Of a stretch of DNA of 64,000 nt, positions 21,735 to 30,279 are shown one piece after another. Within the stretch, counting starts at the first letter, position 1. The number at the start of each line of letters is the position of its first letter. This stretch comes from an uncultured Chloroflexia bacterium. Lineage in GTDB: Bacteria; Chloroflexota; Limnocylindria; QHBO01. A program made the translations under genes and the position numbers. Below the pieces are notes generated by a model. The model saw nothing but the letters and a program-made list of their open reading frames with translations, had not been told where the DNA came from and made no database searches. The stretch covers positions 672,001-736,000 of the forward strand of contig CAWGTN010000002.1 in assembly GCA_963825525.1 (NCBI GenBank). Direction: 5' to 3'.

Positions 21735-22459
21735 TCGAGGATGATCGAGGCGAACGCCTGCGCCAGGCCGATCCCCTGCGGCTCCCCGACGATCTCGGCC
21801 CGCTCGCGCATGCGCTCCCCGACCGTCTCCGGATCGACCTGGCTCTCATGGGCGAGGATCGCGCGGATGCCGATGTCGAAGGTGTCGGCGATGTCGATCC
21901 ACAGGTTGGGCTCCTCGACTCCGAAGAGCAGCACCTGGCGGACCTTCCACGGCTCGAGGTGCTCCTCGCGCCACAGTTCGGGGAAGTTGAGATGATCCCG
22001 GGCGGCGGGATAGACCGCAGCCAGGGTCGCCTCGCCCGTGGCGAGATGGTCCGGGTGCCCGATGAACGGGTTGTAGTCCAGGCGTCTCTGGGGATTCTGG
22101 GTGATCACGAGGTCGGGCCGGAAGCGACGGATCTGGCGCACGATGTCGCGACGCAGGTCGAGTGACGGTTCGAGGTATCCGTCTGGATAGCCGAGATGGA
22201 CGATGTCCCCGACCCCCAGGATGTCGGCGGCGGCCCGCTGCTCCGCGACGCGTGTCGACGAGAGATGCTCAGGGGTCACGGCCGGGTCCTCGGTTCCCTT
22301 GCTGCCGTCCGTGGTCACCACGTAGTCCACCCTGGCCCCGGCGGCCACGAGCGTGGCGATCGTCGACGCGGCGCCGAATTCTGCATCGTCAGGGTGGCTG
22401 ACGATGACCAGGGCGCGCTCGAGAGGCGTGATCAGCTCATGCCGGTCGTGGGGACTCAC
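21731..22459 (-). CDS. PIG-L family deacetylase (intact motifs)
   Basis: SHPDDAEF, GHPDH, HESQ. Confidence 0.92.
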   Translation of the reverse strand: MSPHDRHELITPLERALVIVSHPDDAEFGAASTIATLVAAGARVDYVVTTDGSKGTEDPAVTPEHLSSTRVAEQRAAADILGVGDIVHLGYPDGYLEPSLDLRRDIVRQIRRFRPDLVITQNPQRRLDYNPFIGHPDHLATGEATLAAVYPAARDHLNFPELWREEHLEPWKVRQVLLFGVEEPNLWIDIADTFDIGIRAILAHESQVDPETVGERMRERAEIVGEPQGIGLAQAFASIILE

Positions 22460-22533
22460 CCGGCCATGCTACTGCGATTTGCCGGACGGCAGATTGACCG
22501 TGCTCGGATGCGGCGCGCATACTGCCCACCAGT

Positions 22534-22863
22534 ATGACATCCGATGCACTCCACTTCCGACACAGCTACACCAAGGACAAGGGGTCGCTGGTCACCCGCC
22601 TTCGCCGCATCGAGGGCCAGGCTCGCGGCATTCAGCGCATGGTGGACGAGGAAGCGTACTGCCTCGACATCCTGCAGCAGGTCGAAGCACTCACCGCCGC
22701 GGCCGACCAGGTCGCACTCCTTCTGCTCGAGGACCACATCGACGGCTGCCTGACGCATGCCGTCGAATCCGGGCAGGGACAGCCGTACGTGGATGAGGTC
22801 ATGTCGGTCGTGCGTCGGACGATGGGCCGGCGCGGTCCGCGGAGAACGGGCTCGGGCAGCTGA
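22534..22863 (+). CDS. CsoR/RcnR family metal-sensing repressor
   Basis: RLRRIEGQARGIQRM, YC.DILQQ, H...C ligands. Confidence 0.92.
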   Translation: MTSDALHFRHSYTKDKGSLVTRLRRIEGQARGIQRMVDEEAYCLDILQQVEALTAAADQVALLLLEDHIDGCLTHAVESGQGQPYVDEVMSVVRRTMGRRGPRRTGSGS

Positions 22864-22883
22864 GCCGCTCCGCACTCTGGCAA

Positions 22884-22960: not shown

Positions 22961-25702
22961 TCACTCCCCGAACATGGTCAGCTGGTCGCCTCCGCGCTCG
23001 ATCAGCGGGTCGAGGCCAAGCACCGGCTCCAGCCACTCGAGTCGCGCACCCTGACGCTCGACCAGCGTGTCGAGGTGCTGCCACTTCAGGACGTGCCAGT
23101 TCTGCCGCTCGAGCTCATCTCGCAGCCACGGTGATCGCTGCATCTTCAGTCGCAGCAGCTCGGCGCGCTCAGCCGGAATCACGAGAAAGCGCGCCTGGTC
23201 CTTCCCGACCGGGATCGCGGCACCGCGCCGAAGGACCGCCTCGCCGACCATCGCGGTCCAGTCGACCTCGAACAGGAACGCAAGGCGGCCGCGGACATAC
23301 CACAGTGCGTCGACCTGGCCCAGGAGGTCCGCCGGCGCGCGGATGACCAGCGGGAGGTAGACCCGCCGCTCGTCGTCGGTGAGCCGATCGTCGAGCCGGC
23401 GACCATCAACGACCCGATCGTGCTCTCGCGCGGCCACCCACGCCCGCAGGCCAAGCCGATGGCCGTAGTCGACCAGGGTGGCGATGACGCGCGCATGGTC
23501 GGCGGTCCGGTGCGACAGGTCGTCCTCGGTCGCCAGCGAACCGAGCTCACCCGGGCCGACGTACGCGGCGAGGCACGCCCGCACCAGCTCCTCGTCCGGC
23601 GCCTGGAGCCCGGGAAACAGCCGATACACGCGGTCGAGGAAGCCGGCTTCGTCGATGCGGCCGGCGGTCGAGAGGATCGACCACGTGGCCCACTCGACGC
23701 GATCGGCGAGCGGTCGTTCGGCCAGCTCCGGCTGGCGCAGCCACCACTGCGGCTGGGCGTCGTCTCCCACGCGGACCAGGGACGGATGGTCGTCGCGCCA
23801 CAGCTCCTCGCGGATGAGGCTGGCGACCATCTGCGGTCCGCCCGACTCCAGCCGATCCGGTGTCTCGCTGCCCGCTTCTTCGCGGCCGCCCACCAGCCGC
23901 CCCAGGATGCCGGACGAAGCGAGCTCGTTGACCACGCAGGCAACGACCCGGGTCAGCCCGGCCGGCTCGCCACGGTCGCGCAGCAGGGACGTCACCGAGC
24001 GCTCGATGGCGGATGCCAGGTCCGGGTAGGTCAGATGCCCCGCATCGGCCCCGAGCCGCAAGGGTGCGTCGGGTGTGACCGCGTGTCGCAGCCGGTCCTC
24101 GGCCGAGCGGCGTCGAAAGTGGAGGGCGATCGCGTCGCCCGATCGTCGCGATTCGCGGTGGATGACGGCATCGAGGTCCAGGCCCGCCGCAGCGCCCGCC
24201 ATGGCCACCGCCAGCATCCGCTCTGGCTCCGCGTCTTCGAGCAGCAGCACGCACCATCCACCTGGCTTGAGGGCACCGACGGCCGATGCCATCCCGTGCC
24301 GCAGCGCCGTGATCTCAGCGCCCTCCGGGTGGCCGCTGCCGCCGAAGATCGGCTCGAGGCGCAGGGTCTCCGCCGCCTCCCGCCCCAGGACGACCGCGGT
24401 GGCAAGGTACTCAAGCGCCAGCTCGTCGAGCGTGTGGCTGGCACTCGGCGCCGACAGGACGAGGTCCACGCCATCAGCGGGGAGATACTGGCCAACCACC
24501 GACGCGCGCGCGCGCAGCCAGAGGACATTGGCGGCGGTCATGCCGCCCAGTTCGCCGAAGTCGGCGGCAAACCGCACCGGATGCCGTTCGCCGAGCGCAC
24601 CGATGATGGTCCGGACCTCCCGGTACGCCGTCTCGAACTCCTGCCACAGGTTGACCTCGCGCTGGTGGCGGCTGGCGGGCTGTCGCACGTGACCCGAGGT
24701 GATCCGCAGCGATGCCACTCGCCCGGGGTAGCCATTCAGGCGGCTGCCCGGGAGGAGGCACGACGCGAGTGCCAGGCGCATGACGGCCGCCCCGGGCGAG
24801 TCTCGGAGCTCGCTGTCGATCTTGGTCAGAATCGCGTGGATCGCGTACAGGTTGCGGGGGGTATAGAGCTCGAGGAGCTCGTCCACGAGATCCTCGCGCC
24901 CGTCGAGCACCGGGAAGCGCGCGCGGAGATCCTGGTAGGCCGGACTCTGTCGGACGCCGTCGGCGGCCGCGACCGGGAGCGGATCCGGACGCACCGTTGA
25001 CGCGAATCGAGGCCGCTCCTCGATCGACGTCGGCGGGTCGACCGGCAGGGGCGCCGGCGGCGGTCCTCCCCCCTCGCCGAGATCAAGGTCGGACTCGCCG
25101 GCGGGCGCAATGCCGACCACCGGGTCGACGGGTGGCGGTTCCGCCGGCCGATCGGGAACCGAGATGCCGAGCTTGGCGAGATCCACGTCGTCAACCGGCG
25201 CTGAACGCTCGTCGGGACCGCCGCGGGTGAGGTCGCAGGCAGGGCATCGGTAGATCTTGCGGCCGGGGGCGTCGCCGTCGCGCGGCCAGATGAACTGCTC
25301 GGCCACGACCGGGCTGCGGCACGTGGCACAGCGCGTGGCGTACAGCTCCTCGATGTGCTGGCGGAGTGGCACGTCCACGCGACGCGATGCCGCGAGCTGG
25401 GCGAAGGCGCTGTCGAGCACGGCCGGATCGGGTGCCGTCATCAGGGCGATCGCTGCCATCTGGGCCAGCGGGCTGGCGTCCGCTGCCACGCTCCGCATCC
25501 CGGCGGCCACCGCGCGTCGCGCGGTCCAGCCGGTCCCGGCCCAGGGGTCGAGAACCGTATCGCCCGGCTGTGCGAACGCCGCCAAGGCGGCATCGAGCTG
25601 GTTATCGGCCGGTGACGGATGGGAGCGGTCGAAGAATGCCAGTCCGGGGAGGCGTCGCGGCAGGATGACGTGATCGAGTCCTGTCCGCTCCGCCTCGGTC
25701 AT
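22961..25702 (-). CDS. Zn-ribbon adenine DNA methyltransferase-like protein (catalytic motif degenerate) with C-terminal PD-(D/E)XK-like domain
   Basis: PGDTVLDPWAGTG SAM motif, CATC..CPAC, LYTPRNL, GVDLVLSAPSA at the DPPY position, LKPGG, VDALW...FEVD. Confidence 0.75.
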   Translation of the reverse strand: MTEAERTGLDHVILPRRLPGLAFFDRSHPSPADNQLDAALAAFAQPGDTVLDPWAGTGWTARRAVAAGMRSVAADASPLAQMAAIALMTAPDPAVLDSAFAQLAASRRVDVPLRQHIEELYATRCATCRSPVVAEQFIWPRDGDAPGRKIYRCPACDLTRGGPDERSAPVDDVDLAKLGISVPDRPAEPPPVDPVVGIAPAGESDLDLGEGGGPPPAPLPVDPPTSIEERPRFASTVRPDPLPVAAADGVRQSPAYQDLRARFPVLDGREDLVDELLELYTPRNLYAIHAILTKIDSELRDSPGAAVMRLALASCLLPGSRLNGYPGRVASLRITSGHVRQPASRHQREVNLWQEFETAYREVRTIIGALGERHPVRFAADFGELGGMTAANVLWLRARASVVGQYLPADGVDLVLSAPSASHTLDELALEYLATAVVLGREAAETLRLEPIFGGSGHPEGAEITALRHGMASAVGALKPGGWCVLLLEDAEPERMLAVAMAGAAAGLDLDAVIHRESRRSGDAIALHFRRRSAEDRLRHAVTPDAPLRLGADAGHLTYPDLASAIERSVTSLLRDRGEPAGLTRVVACVVNELASSGILGRLVGGREEAGSETPDRLESGGPQMVASLIREELWRDDHPSLVRVGDDAQPQWWLRQPELAERPLADRVEWATWSILSTAGRIDEAGFLDRVYRLFPGLQAPDEELVRACLAAYVGPGELGSLATEDDLSHRTADHARVIATLVDYGHRLGLRAWVAAREHDRVVDGRRLDDRLTDDERRVYLPLVIRAPADLLGQVDALWYVRGRLAFLFEVDWTAMVGEAVLRRGAAIPVGKDQARFLVIPAERAELLRLKMQRSPWLRDELERQNWHVLKWQHLDTLVERQGARLEWLEPVLGLDPLIERGGDQLTMFGE

Positions 25703-25703
25703 C

Positions 25704-26537
25704 CTATGGCTCTTCTGCCGGCTCCTCTTCGAGCTCGGGCTCACCGGAGTATTCGGGAAGGCTTGTGTCGAGCTCCTCGACCTCCTCCGAGTCCTCGTCG
25801 GTCTCCTCGACCTCTTCGTCGTCATCGTAGCGAAGAGCAGAGCCCTTCATATACGGTCTGACGCTCGTTGCGGCCTGTCCCTGCGTCGGGAAGGAGACCT
25901 TTCCGAAGTTATTCGGGTGGGTGAAGACCTCCCGAATGATGATGAGCAGCTCTCCGCCGCCCTCGTGGATGGTCGTGATGGCCCCCTCGTAGCGGTTGCC
26001 GGCGGCCATCAGCTTGGTGAGGCGAGCGGCAACCCGGGGTTCGACCATGCCGATCTCGGTGGCTCCCACGCTCGCCACGAGCTCATCTCCCCTGGCCTGC
26101 AGCGCAACCGCGTCGCCGGCAGACAACGGGGCGAGCGCACGCGGCGCAGCGAGGTTGATGAGACGCGCGCGACCCGTCTTGCCCATCTCTTCGATGAACA
26201 GCGTCACCGGGGCCTTCTCGGGGCGACCCTTGCCGTTGGCGGCGGGTCGGCTGGCGGCCATCATCACTCGGAGCCGCTCGATGTTCCGCTGAGCGATCCG
26301 GTTGGTGGCGTCGCGCTCGAGCGCCTGCTCGTAGGCCGCGATGGCCTCCGCGTGACGGCCTAGCTCAGCGAGCGCCTTTCCCAGGCGATTCGAGGCATCG
26401 ATATCGGGCCCCAGCTCGAGAAGCTGGCGGTTCGCCGTGACCGCTTCCTCCCATTCGCCCCGCGTCGCATGCGCGATCGCGGCGTCCGCAAGCTGTCGTC
26501 GTTGTCGTGTCGTTGTTTCAGCTTCTCCAAGCGCCAT
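25704..26537 (-). CDS. TPR protein with HIRAN-like middle domain and acidic tail
   Basis: WEEAVTANRQLL..NRLGKAL..AIAAYEQALERD TPR; FIEEMGKT; LSAGDAVAL...IGMVEPRVAARLTKLM..GNRY; D/E-rich C-terminus. Confidence 0.82.
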   Translation of the reverse strand: MALGEAETTTRQRRQLADAAIAHATRGEWEEAVTANRQLLELGPDIDASNRLGKALAELGRHAEAIAAYEQALERDATNRIAQRNIERLRVMMAASRPAANGKGRPEKAPVTLFIEEMGKTGRARLINLAAPRALAPLSAGDAVALQARGDELVASVGATEIGMVEPRVAARLTKLMAAGNRYEGAITTIHEGGGELLIIIREVFTHPNNFGKVSFPTQGQAATSVRPYMKGSALRYDDDEEVEETDEDSEEVEELDTSLPEYSGEPELEEEPAEEP

Positions 26538-26597: not shown

Positions 26598-26626
26598 CTT
26601 GTACCACCGGCCCCCAAGGGTGTCAA
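26598..26626 (-). promoter_or_regulatory. Sigma70-type promoter of the TPR / MTase-like pair
   Basis: TTGACA-17 nt-TACAAG with an extended -10 TG. Confidence 0.6.
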
Positions 26627-26648
26627 CGCGACGCCCGCTCGGTGCTCC

Positions 26649-27425
26649 TCAGCCGCGATACAGGAACAGGCCGACGATCAGGCCGATGATGAGCAGGGAG
26701 CCGAATTCGACCGCCACGCTGCGACCGGATGAGCCCTCGCGGAGTGCGTCGACTGCGCCTCCCCACGTGTAGAACGCCAGGGCGATGAGCGCGGCCGAAG
26801 CGATGATCGGGATGTTCAGCAGGGCCACCCCGACACCCACCTGGACGACCACCAGGACGTGGAGCAGCGCCTGGCCCACGCCCTCGACCCCCATCGTCTC
26901 GCGGGCCTCCGCGGCCCGCATGGCAAGCGGGAGCGCGATTGCCGCCACGAGCAGCAGCGGGGTGGGCCAGCTGCGCGAGCCGAACAGGACCAGCAACCCG
27001 GCCGCGGCGCCGAACAGGATGCCGGTGAGCAGCAGGCCACCCACGGTCCGCCCGCCGGTTCCCCGTTCCAGCCGCAGCTCGAGATACGTCACGGCCCACA
27101 GGAGGACGGCGACGATCGGCACCAGGAGGAGGCTCAGCCCGCCGGGAATCAGCCGTCCGAAGACCGTGGCCGAGATGCCCGCCGTGGCGGGAATGGCATA
27201 CCGCGCGAGCCCGAGGTCCGAACGCGCCGGCCCGATGACCCGCACCGCCACGATCCCGCCCAGCACGAGCTGCGCCGCGACCGCCACGGCCAGCCACAGC
27301 GGATCGACGAACCAGCCGACGGCGGCAACCACTGCCTGCACGATCGCCAGGACGGCGGCAGCGGGCCGATCGACGCGACGGAGGATGGCCAGCCGTCGCC
27401 GATCGCCGAAGAGGCGCGCAATCAT
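26649..27425 (-). CDS. Polytopic membrane protein (DUF5656-like)
   Basis: About 8-9 hydrophobic helices; ATGA overlap with the polX stop. Confidence 0.75.
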   Translation of the reverse strand: MIARLFGDRRRLAILRRVDRPAAAVLAIVQAVVAAVGWFVDPLWLAVAVAAQLVLGGIVAVRVIGPARSDLGLARYAIPATAGISATVFGRLIPGGLSLLLVPIVAVLLWAVTYLELRLERGTGGRTVGGLLLTGILFGAAAGLLVLFGSRSWPTPLLLVAAIALPLAMRAAEARETMGVEGVGQALLHVLVVVQVGVGVALLNIPIIASAALIALAFYTWGGAVDALREGSSGRSVAVEFGSLLIIGLIVGLFLYRG

Positions 27426-29173
27426 CGAAGCAGCTCGAGCAGATCGTCGGCGCCGAGCGTGGCCAGGACCTGATCGGATCGCAGCCAGGCGCGCCGAGCG
27501 AGTTCCACCGCGTACCTCTGCTGCCCGAGCTCCTCCGTGCGATGCGCGTCCGAGGCCACCGTGAGCATGGCCCCGGCCTTCCCCGCCGCACGTGCGAGCG
27601 AGTCATCGAGATCCAACCGTGGACTGCCATTGATTTCGAGGGCCGTGTGATGCCGAGCCGCGGCCTCGAACACGCGCGGCCAGTCGAGCGGCAGCGGGTC
27701 GCGACGATTGACGATCTGGCCCGACGGGTGGGCCAGGATGTCGACGTGAGGGTGCTCGATGGCCGCAAGCGCGCGGCGGGTGAGCTGCTCGCTCGTCTGA
27801 CTGCGGCCGGTGTGGATGCTCGCGATCACGACATCGAACCGCGCCAGCAGCTCGTCCGGGTAGTCCAGGGTGGCATCGGCGCGGATCTCGAGCTCCGTTC
27901 CGTGAAGGATCCGGAACGGGGTGAGCTCCGTGTTCAGTCGATCGATCTCAATGCCCTGCTCCGTGACCCGCTCGGGCGACAACCCACGGGCGATCCCGAG
28001 CGACGGTGAGTGGTCAGTCAGCACGATGTACTCCAGGCCGCGATCGCGAGCGGCCCGCGCCATCACCTCGATGGTGTCGACCCCATCGGTCCAGTTCGAA
28101 TGGGTGTGGGTGTCGCCCCGCACGTCGTCGAGCGTCACGAGGTCCGGCAGCGAGCCGGACCGGGCCGCCTCGACCTCGCCATCGCCCTCCCGCATCTCTG
28201 GCGGAATCCACGGCAGGTCGAGACGGCCGTAGGCCTCCTCCTCATCGGCCGCAAGCAGCAGCTCGCCGGTCTCGATGACCTTGAATCCCTTCTCGGACAG
28301 GGACCAGCCGCGATCCAGCGCCATGCCTCGCAGCGCGATGTTGTGGTCCTTGTTGCCCGTGAAATGCACCAGGTGGGTTCCCCACGCGGCGGGACGGCAG
28401 ATCATGAGGTCCACCTGCGGGCCGTCCCGCAGGACGATGCTCGACTTGTCGATGCCCGCACTGAGGACCTTCTCCACCTCCGCCATCCCGTCCAGGGCGG
28501 CGATCAGGCCAGCCGGATCGTCCGCCGCCGCCAGGAGGTCAAGGTCGCCGATGGTGGAGCGACGACGGCGCAGGGACCCTGCAGGCTCGATACGACGCAC
28601 GCCGCGCACCGTCCGAAGCCGATCGACGAGCCCGGAGACCAGGACATCGGCGTCGTGGATGAGGAGGCGACTCTCGCGACGCTCGATCCTGCCGATTGCC
28701 TCGAGCACGTTCTGCTCGGTCCGCTGCGAGAGCCCCTTCACGCCACGCAGGCGACCCTCCTCGGCCGCTGCGCGCAGTGCGTCAACCGAGTCGATCCCGA
28801 GCTCGCCATGGACCAGGCGGACGGTCTTGGGGCCGATGCCCGGAATGCGCAGCAGCCCCAGCACGCCGTCGGGGACCTGCGCCCGCAGCCGGTCGTGGTA
28901 CTCGAGCCTTCCCGTCTCGGCGAGCTCCGCCAGCTTGGCCGTCAATGCCGCACCGGCCCCGGGCAGCTTTGGGGGATCGCCGCGCCGATAGAGGGCTGCC
29001 ACGTCATCGGGATAGCGCTCGACGGCATCGGCGACGCGGCGGTAGGCGACGGCCTTGTACACCACCTCTCCGAGGATCTCGAGCATGTCGCCGATCTCGT
29101 TGAAGATCCGCGCCAGCTCGGCATTGCTGATCACCGTGTCGTCCGTTCGCGACACGCTGCGGGGTCGAGGCAT
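27422..29173 (-). CDS. polX: DNA polymerase X / PHP 3'-5' exonuclease
   Basis: HhH GIGPK, AGSLRR...GDLD, HFTG, PHP HTHS..TDG, TDHS, DAH; TAGAAT 8 nt before ATG. Confidence 0.95.
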   Translation of the reverse strand: MPRPRSVSRTDDTVISNAELARIFNEIGDMLEILGEVVYKAVAYRRVADAVERYPDDVAALYRRGDPPKLPGAGAALTAKLAELAETGRLEYHDRLRAQVPDGVLGLLRIPGIGPKTVRLVHGELGIDSVDALRAAAEEGRLRGVKGLSQRTEQNVLEAIGRIERRESRLLIHDADVLVSGLVDRLRTVRGVRRIEPAGSLRRRRSTIGDLDLLAAADDPAGLIAALDGMAEVEKVLSAGIDKSSIVLRDGPQVDLMICRPAAWGTHLVHFTGNKDHNIALRGMALDRGWSLSEKGFKVIETGELLLAADEEEAYGRLDLPWIPPEMREGDGEVEAARSGSLPDLVTLDDVRGDTHTHSNWTDGVDTIEVMARAARDRGLEYIVLTDHSPSLGIARGLSPERVTEQGIEIDRLNTELTPFRILHGTELEIRADATLDYPDELLARFDVVIASIHTGRSQTSEQLTRRALAAIEHPHVDILAHPSGQIVNRRDPLPLDWPRVFEAAARHHTALEINGSPRLDLDDSLARAAGKAGAMLTVASDAHRTEELGQQRYAVELARRAWLRSDQVLATLGADDLLELLR

Positions 29174-29277
29174 CGCGGGCAATTCTAGGGCCGGTTCGAC
29201 TCGCGGTCAGTTGGCTGCCGGCGGACGACCGCACGCTGGATAGAATGGGCGGCCCAATCGCCACGATCGAGCGACCG

Positions 29278-30279
29278 ATGAAGGCCATTCCCCGACTTCG
29301 ACGCCGCCAGCACCCCGGCCCGACGCTCGCCATCCCCGGCGAGGAGTCGCGCGGAGAGCCGCGCGTGGAGAGCGTCGAGACCCACGCGCTGCGGTGGCTC
29401 AACATCGACGAGCCACGCCTGGTCGATCGCGCCTACCTCAGCGACACCTTCGGGTTCCACGAGCTCGACCTCGAGGACGTGGCCAGCCACAACCAGCGCC
29501 CGAAGGTCGACGAGTACGACGAGTATCTCTTCCTCGTCATGCAGTTCCCCCGCTTCGACCGCGAGTCGGGCAGGCTCCACGCCGCCGAGCTGGATATCTT
29601 CCTCGGGCCTGACTACATCATCACGCTGCCGAACGAGGAGATCCTTCCCCTGCCCGCCCTGTTCGAGCGCGCCCAGATGCGCGAGGACGTGCGTGAGCAG
29701 CTGATGACGAAGGGATCCGGCTACCTGCTGTACCAGATCCTCGACCGCTGCGTGGATGCCAGCTTCCCGATCCTCGGGCAGCTCGGGAGACGGCTGCGGC
29801 GGCTCGAGGACGACATCTTCGAAGGGGGACGATCGTCGGAGATCGTCCGCGACATCAGCAACGCGAAACAGCAGATCATCAACTTCCGCGCGGTGATTCG
29901 GCCGCAGCGTGCTGTCTTCCGCTCGCTCGAGCGGGCGAAGCAGCGCTACCTGACCGACGACCTGGACATCTACTTCGATGACCTGACCGATGCCTCCGAA
30001 CGCATCTGGGACGTGCTCGAGAACTTCATGGAGATCGTCAACGGTCTCGAGAGCACGAATGAATCGGTCCTCTCGCATCGGCTCAACGACGTGCTGCGCA
30101 TCCTCACGGCCGTGACCGTGATCCTGCTGCCGCTCACCCTGCTGACCGGGTTCTTCGGGATGAACGTCGACTTCCCGGGGCAGGAGCACGGAGCACTCTA
30201 CTTCTGGGGCATCGTGGTCACGATGCTCGCGATCCTCATCGGCATGGTCGCCTTCTTTCGGCGGCGTGGCTGGCTGTGA
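29278..30279 (+). CDS. corA: CorA-family Mg/Co transporter
   Basis: QRPKVDEYD, FFGMN signature, two C-terminal TM helices. Confidence 0.93.
   Translation: MKAIPRLRRRQHPGPTLAIPGEESRGEPRVESVETHALRWLNIDEPRLVDRAYLSDTFGFHELDLEDVASHNQRPKVDEYDEYLFLVMQFPRFDRESGRLHAAELDIFLGPDYIITLPNEEILPLPALFERAQMREDVREQLMTKGSGYLLYQILDRCVDASFPILGQLGRRLRRLEDDIFEGGRSSEIVRDISNAKQQIINFRAVIRPQRAVFRSLERAKQRYLTDDLDIYFDDLTDASERIWDVLENFMEIVNGLESTNESVLSHRLNDVLRILTAVTVILLPLTLLTGFFGMNVDFPGQEHGALYFWGIVVTMLAILIGMVAFFRRRGWL

Follow-up and report, generated by a model that had tools for sequence, protein, structure and literature searches.

What can a protein do that has kept the fold of a DNA methyltransferase, lost the catalytic motif and remained joined to a restriction-like nuclease domain? 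The question is raised by a gene in a stretch of 64,000 nucleotides (nt) from an uncultured bacterium of the Limnocylindria, phylum Chloroflexota (GenBank assembly GCA_963825525.1, contig CAWGTN010000002.1, positions 672,001 to 736,000; hereafter "the window"). The genome analysed comprises 2.58 Mb in 4 contigs, with a completeness of 91.8%. A first-pass annotation of the window had described the gene as an intact pseudo-methyltransferase fused to a nuclease domain and derived from a restriction-modification (R-M) system. The reading that we favour, with slightly more confidence than doubt, is that the protein has come down by vertical inheritance from a widespread family in which a methyltransferase, winged helices and an NmeDI_C-type domain are fused in a single chain, that it is dead for methylation, and that it is tethered to the sliding clamp. 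The best clue to the site of its action is a clamp-type motif at the C-terminus. The gene and the parts of its methyltransferase-like half are located as follows.

22961..25702, minus strand: target coding sequence, 913 amino acids (aa) plus stop, uninterrupted (P0001)
24068..25663, minus strand: class I (Rossmann) methyltransferase-fold region with insertions, residues ~14-545, from the AlphaFold model and VIA-align
25529..25549, minus strand: motif I, the S-adenosylmethionine (SAM)-binding loop DPWAGTG, residues 52-58
24440..24454, minus strand: relic of motif IV, SAPSA versus TDPPY in relatives, residues 417-421

Translation of 22961-25702 on the minus strand gave the intact 913-aa open reading frame (ORF) that had been annotated, and all sequence landmarks named in the annotation could be located in it, including LYTPRNL (residues 279-285) and LKPGG (residues 478-482). 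An alternative in-frame ATG at 25825 would give a longer ORF of 954 aa; the start at 25702 was preferred because all 12 of 12 genus-level orthologues begin there with M(T/S)(E/D)AER. Close homologues are 913-930 aa long with a coverage of 100%. The landmark features exceed what chance would give, as judged from the homologue counts and from a cysteine ribbon that is near-invariant in 58 representative sequences.

The full-length AlphaFold model had a predicted local distance difference test score (pLDDT) of 87.7 and a predicted template modelling score (pTM) of 0.87, and it bore out the methyltransferase fold that had been proposed for the N-terminal half. The best fold match of this region was Trm11 (6zxv_A; Z 19.9, root-mean-square deviation (rmsd) 3.1, 177 residues aligned with VIA-align), followed by Trm14 (Z 19.5) and TrmN (Z 19.4); the closest solved folds are those of tRNA m2G methyltransferases. 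The insertions in the fold include a four-cysteine ribbon and a proline-rich segment (residues 189-245). The Pfam family N6_N4_Mtase (PF01555) matched residues 40-76 with 16.9 bits, under its gathering threshold of 26.7, and M.RsrI matched residues 17-82 (E 6.9e-5). An NCBIfam scan of the whole protein gave sub-threshold methyltransferase matches only, and PADLOC gave weak generic MTase_II matches over residues 41-123 (best E 3.6e-7) and no defence-system model beyond this generic methyltransferase part. As a candidate N6/N4 methyltransferase the protein thus has the fold and motif I, and fails on motif IV and on the Pfam threshold.

In the listed variants of 121 close sequences the SAM-binding loop was retained as DPW(A/G)G(T/S/I)G, and AAD after strand 2 was also conserved. 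In the 58 representatives the D, P and F of motif I were kept in 51, 51 and 46 sequences, and both glycines of the G-x-G pair in 5. At the catalytic position, SAPSA fell exactly on the TDPPY columns of three intact relatives (alignment A1), as the first-pass annotation had read it. The annotation had also considered that only this copy might have decayed; the (D/N/S)PP(Y/F) loop is instead gone across the whole Chloroflexota branch. The Asp remained in 5/58 representatives, the two prolines in 47 and 52, and an aromatic residue almost never, and DPFxGSG and TDPPY occurred together in only three (P0236, P0259, P0262). Among the 121 close sequences the loop is hypervariable, with a commonest variant seen 6 times and listed variants that share only (S/G)(A/S)P. 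It is the most variable structured segment of the protein, with no aromatic and no conserved polar residue left.

Selection on the different parts was estimated as the ratio of nonsynonymous to synonymous substitution rates (dN/dS, method NG86), one of the checks that the first-pass annotation had named. The estimates are based on 66 pairs among 12 genus-level copies, all of them intact and one from an unpublished genome (G120).

Whole gene: dN/dS 0.21
Methyltransferase core: dN/dS 0.20
Winged helices: dN/dS 0.23
Nuclease domain: dN/dS 0.18, the lowest of the folded domains
Disordered insert: dN/dS 0.36
Motif IV loop, residues 414-430: dN/dS 0.40

Every domain is under purifying selection, as is the gene as a whole. 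Since the fold has been kept (0.20) and motif IV has drifted (0.40), the pattern matches what would be predicted for a pseudo-methyltransferase. From its sequence the protein is therefore classed as such: the fold has been maintained, the former catalytic loop has drifted, and the protein is predicted to be dead for methylation.

Relatives that retain the catalytic motif were sought with three intact-motif proteins (alignment A5) in species-representative genomes, which gave 603 confirmed stretches, and 80 loci were kept. In archaea they were found in DPANN, Nitrosopumilaceae, Bathyarchaeia, Methanosarcinales and Thermoplasmatota, and in bacteria in Planctomycetota, Verrucomicrobiota, Nitrospinota, Bacteroidota, Omnitrophota, Pelagibacter, the candidate phyla radiation (CPR) and others. 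The 47 loci with a match into the C-terminal region were examined, and 33 loci with the methyltransferase part only were left out. Forty-three of the 47 were used, after removal of a fragment (L078), a gene running off the contig end (L086), a garbled C-terminal frame (L088) and a truncated extra copy that shares its assembly with L084 (L083). DPFxGSG was found in 38 of these 43 proteins, the CxxC...CxxC ribbon in 38 and D..W..[FY]E[VI]E in 42; DPPY was present in 43/43, a count biased by the search pattern, which demanded DPP.

The last 22 residues of the 43 proteins were sorted into two types, resembling the PCNA-interacting peptide (PIP) of archaeal clients and the beta-clamp motif of bacterial ones. 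The PIP box has been defined as QXXhXXaa in the available part of one source (PMC4929162), and the bacterial beta-clamp consensus as QLxLF, usually C-terminal, in that of another (PMC4549789).

Archaea (11 proteins): PIP type, Qxx[LIMV]xx[FYW], 10; beta type 0; neither 1
Bacteria (32 proteins): PIP type 0; beta type, Qxx[LMIF][FLWI], 20; neither 12

Archaeal tails end, for example, in ...QTDMSDFFS, ...QNSLNIYL and ...QNSVNDFMK, and bacterial tails in ...QLNLF, ...QGRLF, ...QMNLF, QLSLF.. and QLDLF... On a quick maximum-likelihood tree (IQ-TREE) from which the tails had been left out, the archaeal label required at least 5 changes, and none of 500 shuffles was as low. Copies from Pirellulales/Planctomycetota that are nested among archaeal ones on this tree carried beta-type tails, and a copy from Thermoplasmatota, sister to a large bacterial clade, carried a PIP-type tail. 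We take this co-variation of the tail with the host as the strongest evidence, drawn from sequences, for reading the tail as a sliding-clamp motif and clamp tethering as ancestral to the family.

Two further observations were made at the loci of relatives. In 6 of 16 loci of intact relatives (L093, L095, L102, L105, L110, L112) a protein of 98-187 aa with a UPF0758_N domain (the RadC N-terminal helix-hairpin-helix) was encoded directly upstream, with gaps to the start of the methyltransferase-nuclease gene of 0, 1, -14, -14, -44 and -8 nt; within one bacterial subclade it is a possible conserved partner. In a Chloroflexota genome from outside the class (G152, family f7), a second ORF of 693 aa directly beside the family member (L060:10122-12200, minus strand) matched N6_N4_Mtase (E 2.8e-14) and could represent a paralogue, or else a methyltransferase that acts as partner.

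The protein in the window ends in the bacterial type of tail, a feature that the first-pass annotation does not mention.

22964..23026, minus strand: C-terminal tail PVLGLDPLIERGGDQLTMFGE, residues 893-913, of low model confidence and flexible
22970..22984, minus strand: beta-clamp-binding-type motif QLTMF, residues 907-911, two residues before the C-terminus

The end of the protein reads QLTMF-GE. The last 21 residues are its most conserved part, with 4 variants among the 121 close sequences and a dN of 0 in all 66 pairs. The pLDDT drops to 66 and then to 47 in the last two blocks, as is expected of a flexible linear motif. QLT[MI]F was found in 120/120 close homologues, and the broader pattern Q[LIMV]x[LMIF][FLIMW] lay within the last 25 residues of 52/58 representatives, at the very end in 32, with 9 internal matches in 46,682 residues. 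QLTMF fits the bacterial beta-clamp-binding motif, and clamp binding is predicted from it. The Y-family polymerase DinB of the same genome (L065:1480-2688, plus strand, contig C2) carries an internal QLTLF that is followed by ~50 residues.

A complex prediction was made for residues 866-913 with the genome's own DnaN (376 aa), using a DnaN alignment of 25 Chloroflexota sequences. It scored 0.32, against 0.00 for the best of 3 controls, and was graded as weak support; the runs agreed in at least 61% of contacts, with a partner pLDDT of at least 33, and no interface was returned. In the calibration, 58 of 80 solved complexes and 2 of 110 mismatched pairs passed the mark; among these, only 7 of the solved complexes, but both mismatches, passed it with a score of 0.60 or under. 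Clamp-peptide complexes have already been solved, and the pass may reflect likeness to these known structures. Taken alone, the complex prediction adds little to the case for clamp binding.

The other half of the protein contains the nuclease-like domain and the winged helices.

23027..23521, minus strand: restriction-endonuclease-like domain, residues ~728-892; NmeDI_C (Pfam 38.1) by precomputed homologue annotation
23261..23311, minus strand: putative metal-binding triad D798 ... E812-V-D814, within VDALW (797-801) and FEVD (811-814)
23522..24034, minus strand: two winged-helix domains, residues ~557-659 and ~660-727

A PD-(D/E)XK-like core had been suspected at the C-terminus, and a restriction-endonuclease-like fold was indeed found there. 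The best match was the small subunit of R.BspD6I (2p14_A; Z 7.8, rmsd 4.0, 143 residues aligned), followed by EcoT38I (6.7-7.0), AF1548 (6.9), N.BspD6I (6.5) and BstEII (6.4), with AF2093 within 6.4-7.0. A PDB sequence search with the C-terminal profile A4 gave nothing useful, its one match having an E of 0.22. Of the 120 close homologues listed, 45 were annotated with the family PF27126.1, as were fragments spanning only residues ~722-913; because this annotation is independent of the moderate fold scores, it supports a nuclease domain. The spacer between VDALW and FEVD counts 9 residues, one more than the first-pass annotation had given. In 120 of the 121 close sequences [ED]-V-[ED] was retained, and the D-E-(E/D) triad was complete in 20/58 representatives. 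Among the Chloroflexota families, f1 and f3 keep it, f2 and f5 have E812 replaced, and f11 and f35 have lost it. Variant sites with E-x-E can be active, as in BamHI, and by likeness to sites of this type E-x-D would be compatible with nuclease activity.

The "helical repeats" that the first-pass annotation had seen at the C-terminus were resolved by structure matching into the two winged-helix domains. In a separate model of residues 556-913 (pLDDT 92.7), they matched the cullin WHB domain (3rtr_A) and a 72-residue ribosome chain (6zmo_CE) with a Z of 9.0, the C-terminal domain of MutYX with 8.8, and ORC/Cdc6 winged helices with 7-8.4. The ribbon and the proline-rich segment inserted in the methyltransferase fold are located as follows.

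25235..25330, minus strand: four-cysteine Zn ribbon CATC/CPAC (C125, C128, C153, C156)
24968..25138, minus strand: proline-rich insert, predicted disordered, residues 189-245

The ribbon cysteines were conserved in 58, 58, 58 and 57 of the 58 representatives. The proline-rich insert had a pLDDT below 50 for residues 189-238 and the lowest conservation in the protein.

Another check named in the first-pass annotation, a phyletic profile, returned a core gene. Among 8000 candidates scored, 418 homologues were found at E <= 0.001, of which the 120 listed ones were full length and 69-98% identical; a second search gave 1266 cluster representatives at E <= 0.001 and 182 at E <= 1e-30. In a sample of the class the gene was matched in 148/151 genomes, in 109/110 high-quality genomes and in 35/35 genera, including genomes of 1.0-1.4 Mb; this tally takes in six unpublished genomes (G120, G093, G084, G133, G100, G067). 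When 251 genomes of the phylum were searched with a profile built from the 58 representatives, 57 had full-length matches (E < 1e-100), concentrated in whole families, with 14/14 in family f1, 13/13 in f3, 15/16 in f11 and further matches in several smaller families, and with 0/10 in f9 and 0/8 in f21. The distribution is that of a vertically inherited gene, core in some lineages, unlike that of a mobile defence gene.

These results bear on the proposed descent from an R-M system. The target lacks two traits of classical R-M systems: an active cognate methyltransferase, motif IV being lost, and a patchy, mobile distribution, which was seen only in the intact-motif relatives. In the intact family itself, the locus holds one fused gene with housekeeping genes around it, and no separate methyltransferase or nuclease gene accompanies it. 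On plasmids, none of 70 matching records reached a query coverage of at least 80%, and the matches were to the methyltransferase part only; a single partial phage record matched the intact family. Domestication of a methyltransferase-nuclease fusion fits because the gene is vertical and core, with intact relatives that are scattered. That part of the proposal is supported, but the parent family does not resemble a classical R-M operon. The further proposal, a base-flipping reader of damaged or modified DNA, drew no support from the analysis.

Two genes upstream of the target are located as follows.

25704..26537, minus strand: gene for a tetratricopeptide repeat (TPR) protein, 277 aa, with an acidic tail; its TAG stop is followed by one base and then by the target ATG
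27422..29182, minus strand: PolX, DNA polymerase/3'-5' exonuclease, two genes upstream of the target (NCBIfam NF006375, 466.6 bits versus a cut-off of 426; Pfam)

The long acidic C-terminal tail of the TPR protein reads DDDEEVEETDEDSEEVEE... The TPR gene, which the first-pass annotation does not mention, adjoins the target or sits just upstream of it in 18/18 class loci (one of them, L005, from the unpublished G120) and is also present in a locus of a reduced genome (L064). Outside the class, tblastn gave no match to it in 7 Chloroflexota loci (E <= 1e-4) or in 87 loci (E <= 1), and in the ESM Atlas it matched "TPR protein" clusters only. PolX was syntenic with the TPR-target pair in 4/7 long class loci (L014, L015, L018, L019), in families f1 and f3. 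We regard PolX as genomic context of the target; the association is one of synteny only.

The remaining neighbours encode an adenosine deaminase, cytochrome c assembly, a DsbH-type thioredoxin, an ABC transporter, a PIG-L deacetylase and an aldehyde dehydrogenase. In agreement with the first-pass annotation, no methyltransferase, restriction or mobile-element gene was present among the neighbours scanned (14.6-35.1 kb of the window), and the only above-threshold N6_N4_Mtase match of the genome lay ~650 kb away on the same contig. The guanine-plus-cytosine content of the gene (0.695-0.703) falls within the range across the window (0.653-0.719), so that the composition is genome-typical, as had been stated. 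In other Chloroflexota lineages the neighbours were different, unrelated housekeeping genes. Directly downstream of the target, a 139-aa ORF (22456-22875, minus strand) without a family match was found with 39-60% identity in 12/13 f1 loci and was undetected in f2, f3 and f5 loci. The two ORFs flanking PolX, 26623-27768 (minus strand, 381 aa) and 29185-30189 (minus strand, 334 aa), had no Pfam match. As listed, the former overlaps the 3' end of PolX by ~350 nt, and its true start therefore probably lies further downstream.

Our best reading of the function is a role in DNA surveillance for a domesticated, probably nuclease-competent, clamp-tethered protein. The tail would bind the hydrophobic cleft of DnaN, which would recruit the protein to clamps that stay behind on DNA after its replication or repair. 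Together, the dead methyltransferase module, the Zn ribbon and the winged helices would form the part that binds and reads DNA, possibly with SAM still bound as a ligand by the dead module. The NmeDI_C domain may then cut or nick the DNA using a divalent metal, with the TPR protein encoded upstream as a partner or regulator. A wider version, in which the whole family is a clamp-coupled methyltransferase-nuclease machine that swaps PIP-type and beta-type tails at each crossing between domains of life, and in which the present branch is a replication-coupled incision nuclease or an error- or lesion-surveillance nuclease working with the TPR protein, seems rather doubtful to us.

Several points weigh against the favoured reading. 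Clamp binding, cleavage and SAM binding are all predicted from sequence and models. The triad is incomplete in 38/58 representatives and the G-x-G pair is lost in 53/58, and therefore a function common to the whole Chloroflexota branch needs neither activity. At the canonical Lys position the site is acidic, with E-x-D/E instead of E-x-K. The nuclease-fold scores of 6.4-7.8 are moderate, and such values can reflect a common arrangement; Foldseek gave no match in the PDB at E <= 0.001 with either the whole model or the C-terminal model. The family PF27126, which takes the name NmeDI_C via the ESM Atlas, was read from annotated homologues rather than from P0001 itself. Concerning the tail, 12/32 bacterial intact relatives showed no motif within their last 22 residues, and among the 20 regular-expression matches of beta type two (L080 and L082) are doubtful. 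Several of the 12 carry Q(S/R)LMEF, QVLF or QAIF some 25 residues before the C-terminus, with an acidic extension behind it. Judged by its calibration, the weak-support grade of the complex prediction misleads more often than not, except where the proposed pairing was already likely.

The main rival is a non-catalytic clamp-associated protein that binds DNA or serves as a scaffold, in which both modules would be pseudo-enzymes acting as binding surfaces together with the TPR partner. We hold this to be possible, if tentative, and the same applies to the role given as an example, replication-coupled chromosome organisation or regulation. It would account for the residues that are conserved in the 58 representatives, namely the four cysteines, D52-P53-F54, P419-P420, W801, R846, K/R853, W869, G896 and Q907..L910-F911, as against a triad that is complete in only 20 of them and a G-x-G pair in 5; families f11 and f35, which have lost the triad, still keep the gene and its tail, and two winged helices with a TPR partner suit a binding protein. 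The target's own clade nevertheless keeps [ED]-V-[ED] in 120/121 sequences together with DPWAG(T/S)G, all 12 of 12 genus-level copies are intact, and a dN/dS of 0.18 in the nuclease domain would be unexpected were the triad residues functionless.

An anti-phage or anti-plasmid nuclease derived from an R-M enzyme, delivered by the clamp to replicating foreign DNA and using the dead methyltransferase to recognise modification state or sequence, strikes us as improbable. The patchiness of the intact family across domains (603 confirmed stretches, many phyla, a tree that requires 5 or more domain switches) would suit such a role, as would the weak PADLOC MTase_II matches given above and an ESM Atlas architecture that resembles "restriction endonuclease" clusters with Mrr_cat and N6_N4_Mtase (score 0.92). 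However, a gene present in 148/151 class genomes, the small ones of 1.0-1.4 Mb included, with stable housekeeping synteny and no mobile or defence neighbours found, does not resemble a defence gene; PADLOC matched no system model beyond the generic methyltransferase part, the full architecture was on 0/70 matching plasmid records, with one partial phage record, and a sequence-specific nuclease without a working cognate methyltransferase would endanger the host chromosome. A DNA or RNA methyltransferase that is still active through an unorthodox catalytic loop is unlikely because the motif IV loop is hypervariable, and we give it only the slightest chance. The fold is complete, its closest solved neighbours are tRNA m2G methyltransferases, and DPWAGTG and the AAD after strand 2 are conserved in the clade; yet the loop has no aromatic or conserved polar residue, its commonest variant accounts for 6/121 sequences at a dN/dS of 0.40, and the Pfam score stays under the gathering threshold.

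The complement of repair genes provides a context for the reading of a clamp-tethered surveillance protein. The only MutS-family match in the genome was MutS2 (MutS_V and Smr); at its completeness of 91.8%, no match was found to MutS1, to the MutL domains MutL_C (PF08676) and DNA_mis_repair (PF01119), or to NucS_C (PF01939). The DNA_mis_repair domain of MutL was present in 214/251 Chloroflexota genomes and in 0/28 sampled genomes of the class (f1 0/14, f3 0/13, f4 0/1), a tally that takes in the unpublished G185, G312 and G295. A core, clamp-type, nuclease-like protein in a class without detected MutL is suggestive. A replacement of mismatch repair was set aside as the leading interpretation because MutL (16/16) and the target family (15/16) coexist in family f11, so that there is no clean complementarity. 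The accessible text of one paper that links Limnocylindria with mismatch repair treats the loss of base-excision repair and makes no mention of the target gene.

Sliding clamps are hubs through which enzymes reach newly made DNA. If the favoured reading is true, the host-matched tail would couple an R-M-like activity directly to replication, in bacteria as well as in archaea. On the wider, rather doubtful version, the family would be the first R-M-like enzymes hard-wired to the sliding clamp, and its Chloroflexota branch would add to MutS-MutL and NucS a third way of post-replicative repair, unrelated to either. The Chloroflexota branch, from an abundant soil lineage, would illustrate the domesticated fate of such an enzyme, in which the catalytic loop decays and the fold, the Zn ribbon, the triad and the tail stay under selection, and would be a clean natural example of pseudo-enzyme evolution. 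The protein is a concrete candidate for the replication-fidelity or genome-surveillance machinery of the lineage, and even a conservative reading would add an unrecognised client to the clamp interactome. The link to the clamp makes the function directly testable, and the repair genes that were not found in the lineage add weight to the question.

Fused methyltransferase-nuclease restriction enzymes, pseudo-methyltransferases, the NmeDI_C domain, clamp-binding nucleases and host-matched clamp motifs of transposases are all known already. In a literature search, judged in part by title or abstract, no paper was found on methyltransferase-nuclease fusions with host-matched clamp motifs or on the dead Chloroflexota branch, nor on PF27126 or on an experimental study of any member of the intact family.

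The nearest relatives are the intact proteins themselves, which are ~800-900 aa long, annotated as "DNA modification methylase" or hypothetical, and detectable as homologues of the target by HMMER over the full length. They share with it the domain order, the ribbon, D..W..FEVE and the clamp-type tail; they differ in keeping DPFxGSG and DPPY and in being scattered over phyla, whereas the target, a core gene of a single class, no longer has motif IV. The DUF1156/Zn-ribbon adenine methyltransferases, to which the first-pass annotation had likened the target, have the same order of motif I, Zn ribbon and motif IV. The likeness holds for this order but not for the family, as NCBIfam gave no DUF1156 match to the target. 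One intact relative (P0259) matched DUF1156_antiphage with E 5.4e-8 and 31.4 bits, at a cut-off of 1000. The target also lacks the N-terminal motif HK[FY]W[AT]RKP of the intact relatives, which we take to resemble the DUF1156 signature. MutL is a beta-clamp-binding nicking endonuclease of post-replicative repair, with an endonuclease fold unrelated to the target.

Among restriction enzymes, comparison is closest with R.NmeDI and the type II and IIG enzymes, through the NmeDI_C domain annotated on the target's homologues and a fold that resembles R.BspD6I, EcoT38I and BstEII. R.NmeDI is a characterised type II restriction enzyme, described in the available part of its report as a 351-aa stand-alone nuclease that is encoded beside its C5 methyltransferase and cuts on both sides of RCCGGY (PMC2095814). 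In the target, unlike in R.NmeDI, the domain forms one chain with a dead amino-methyltransferase and precedes a clamp-type tail, and no cognate methyltransferase was found nearby. NucS/EndoMS, according to the available part of the source (PMC4929162), combines a PD-(D/E)XK-type nuclease with a sliding-clamp motif at the C-terminus and acts on replicated DNA. Its likeness to the target is one of layout only, a DNA-reading domain, a nuclease and a clamp tail, with no sequence or family relationship; it has ~250 aa and no methyltransferase or winged-helix modules. The switch of the tail itself has a counterpart in the IS1634 transposases, whose bacterial copies end in QLxLF and whose euryarchaeal copies carry the PCNA motif QxxIxxFF, with binding shown, in the part of the paper available (PMC4549789). 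These transposases are unrelated to the target family and serve as a precedent for the motif logic only, yet they make the same host-matched switch between the two clamps.

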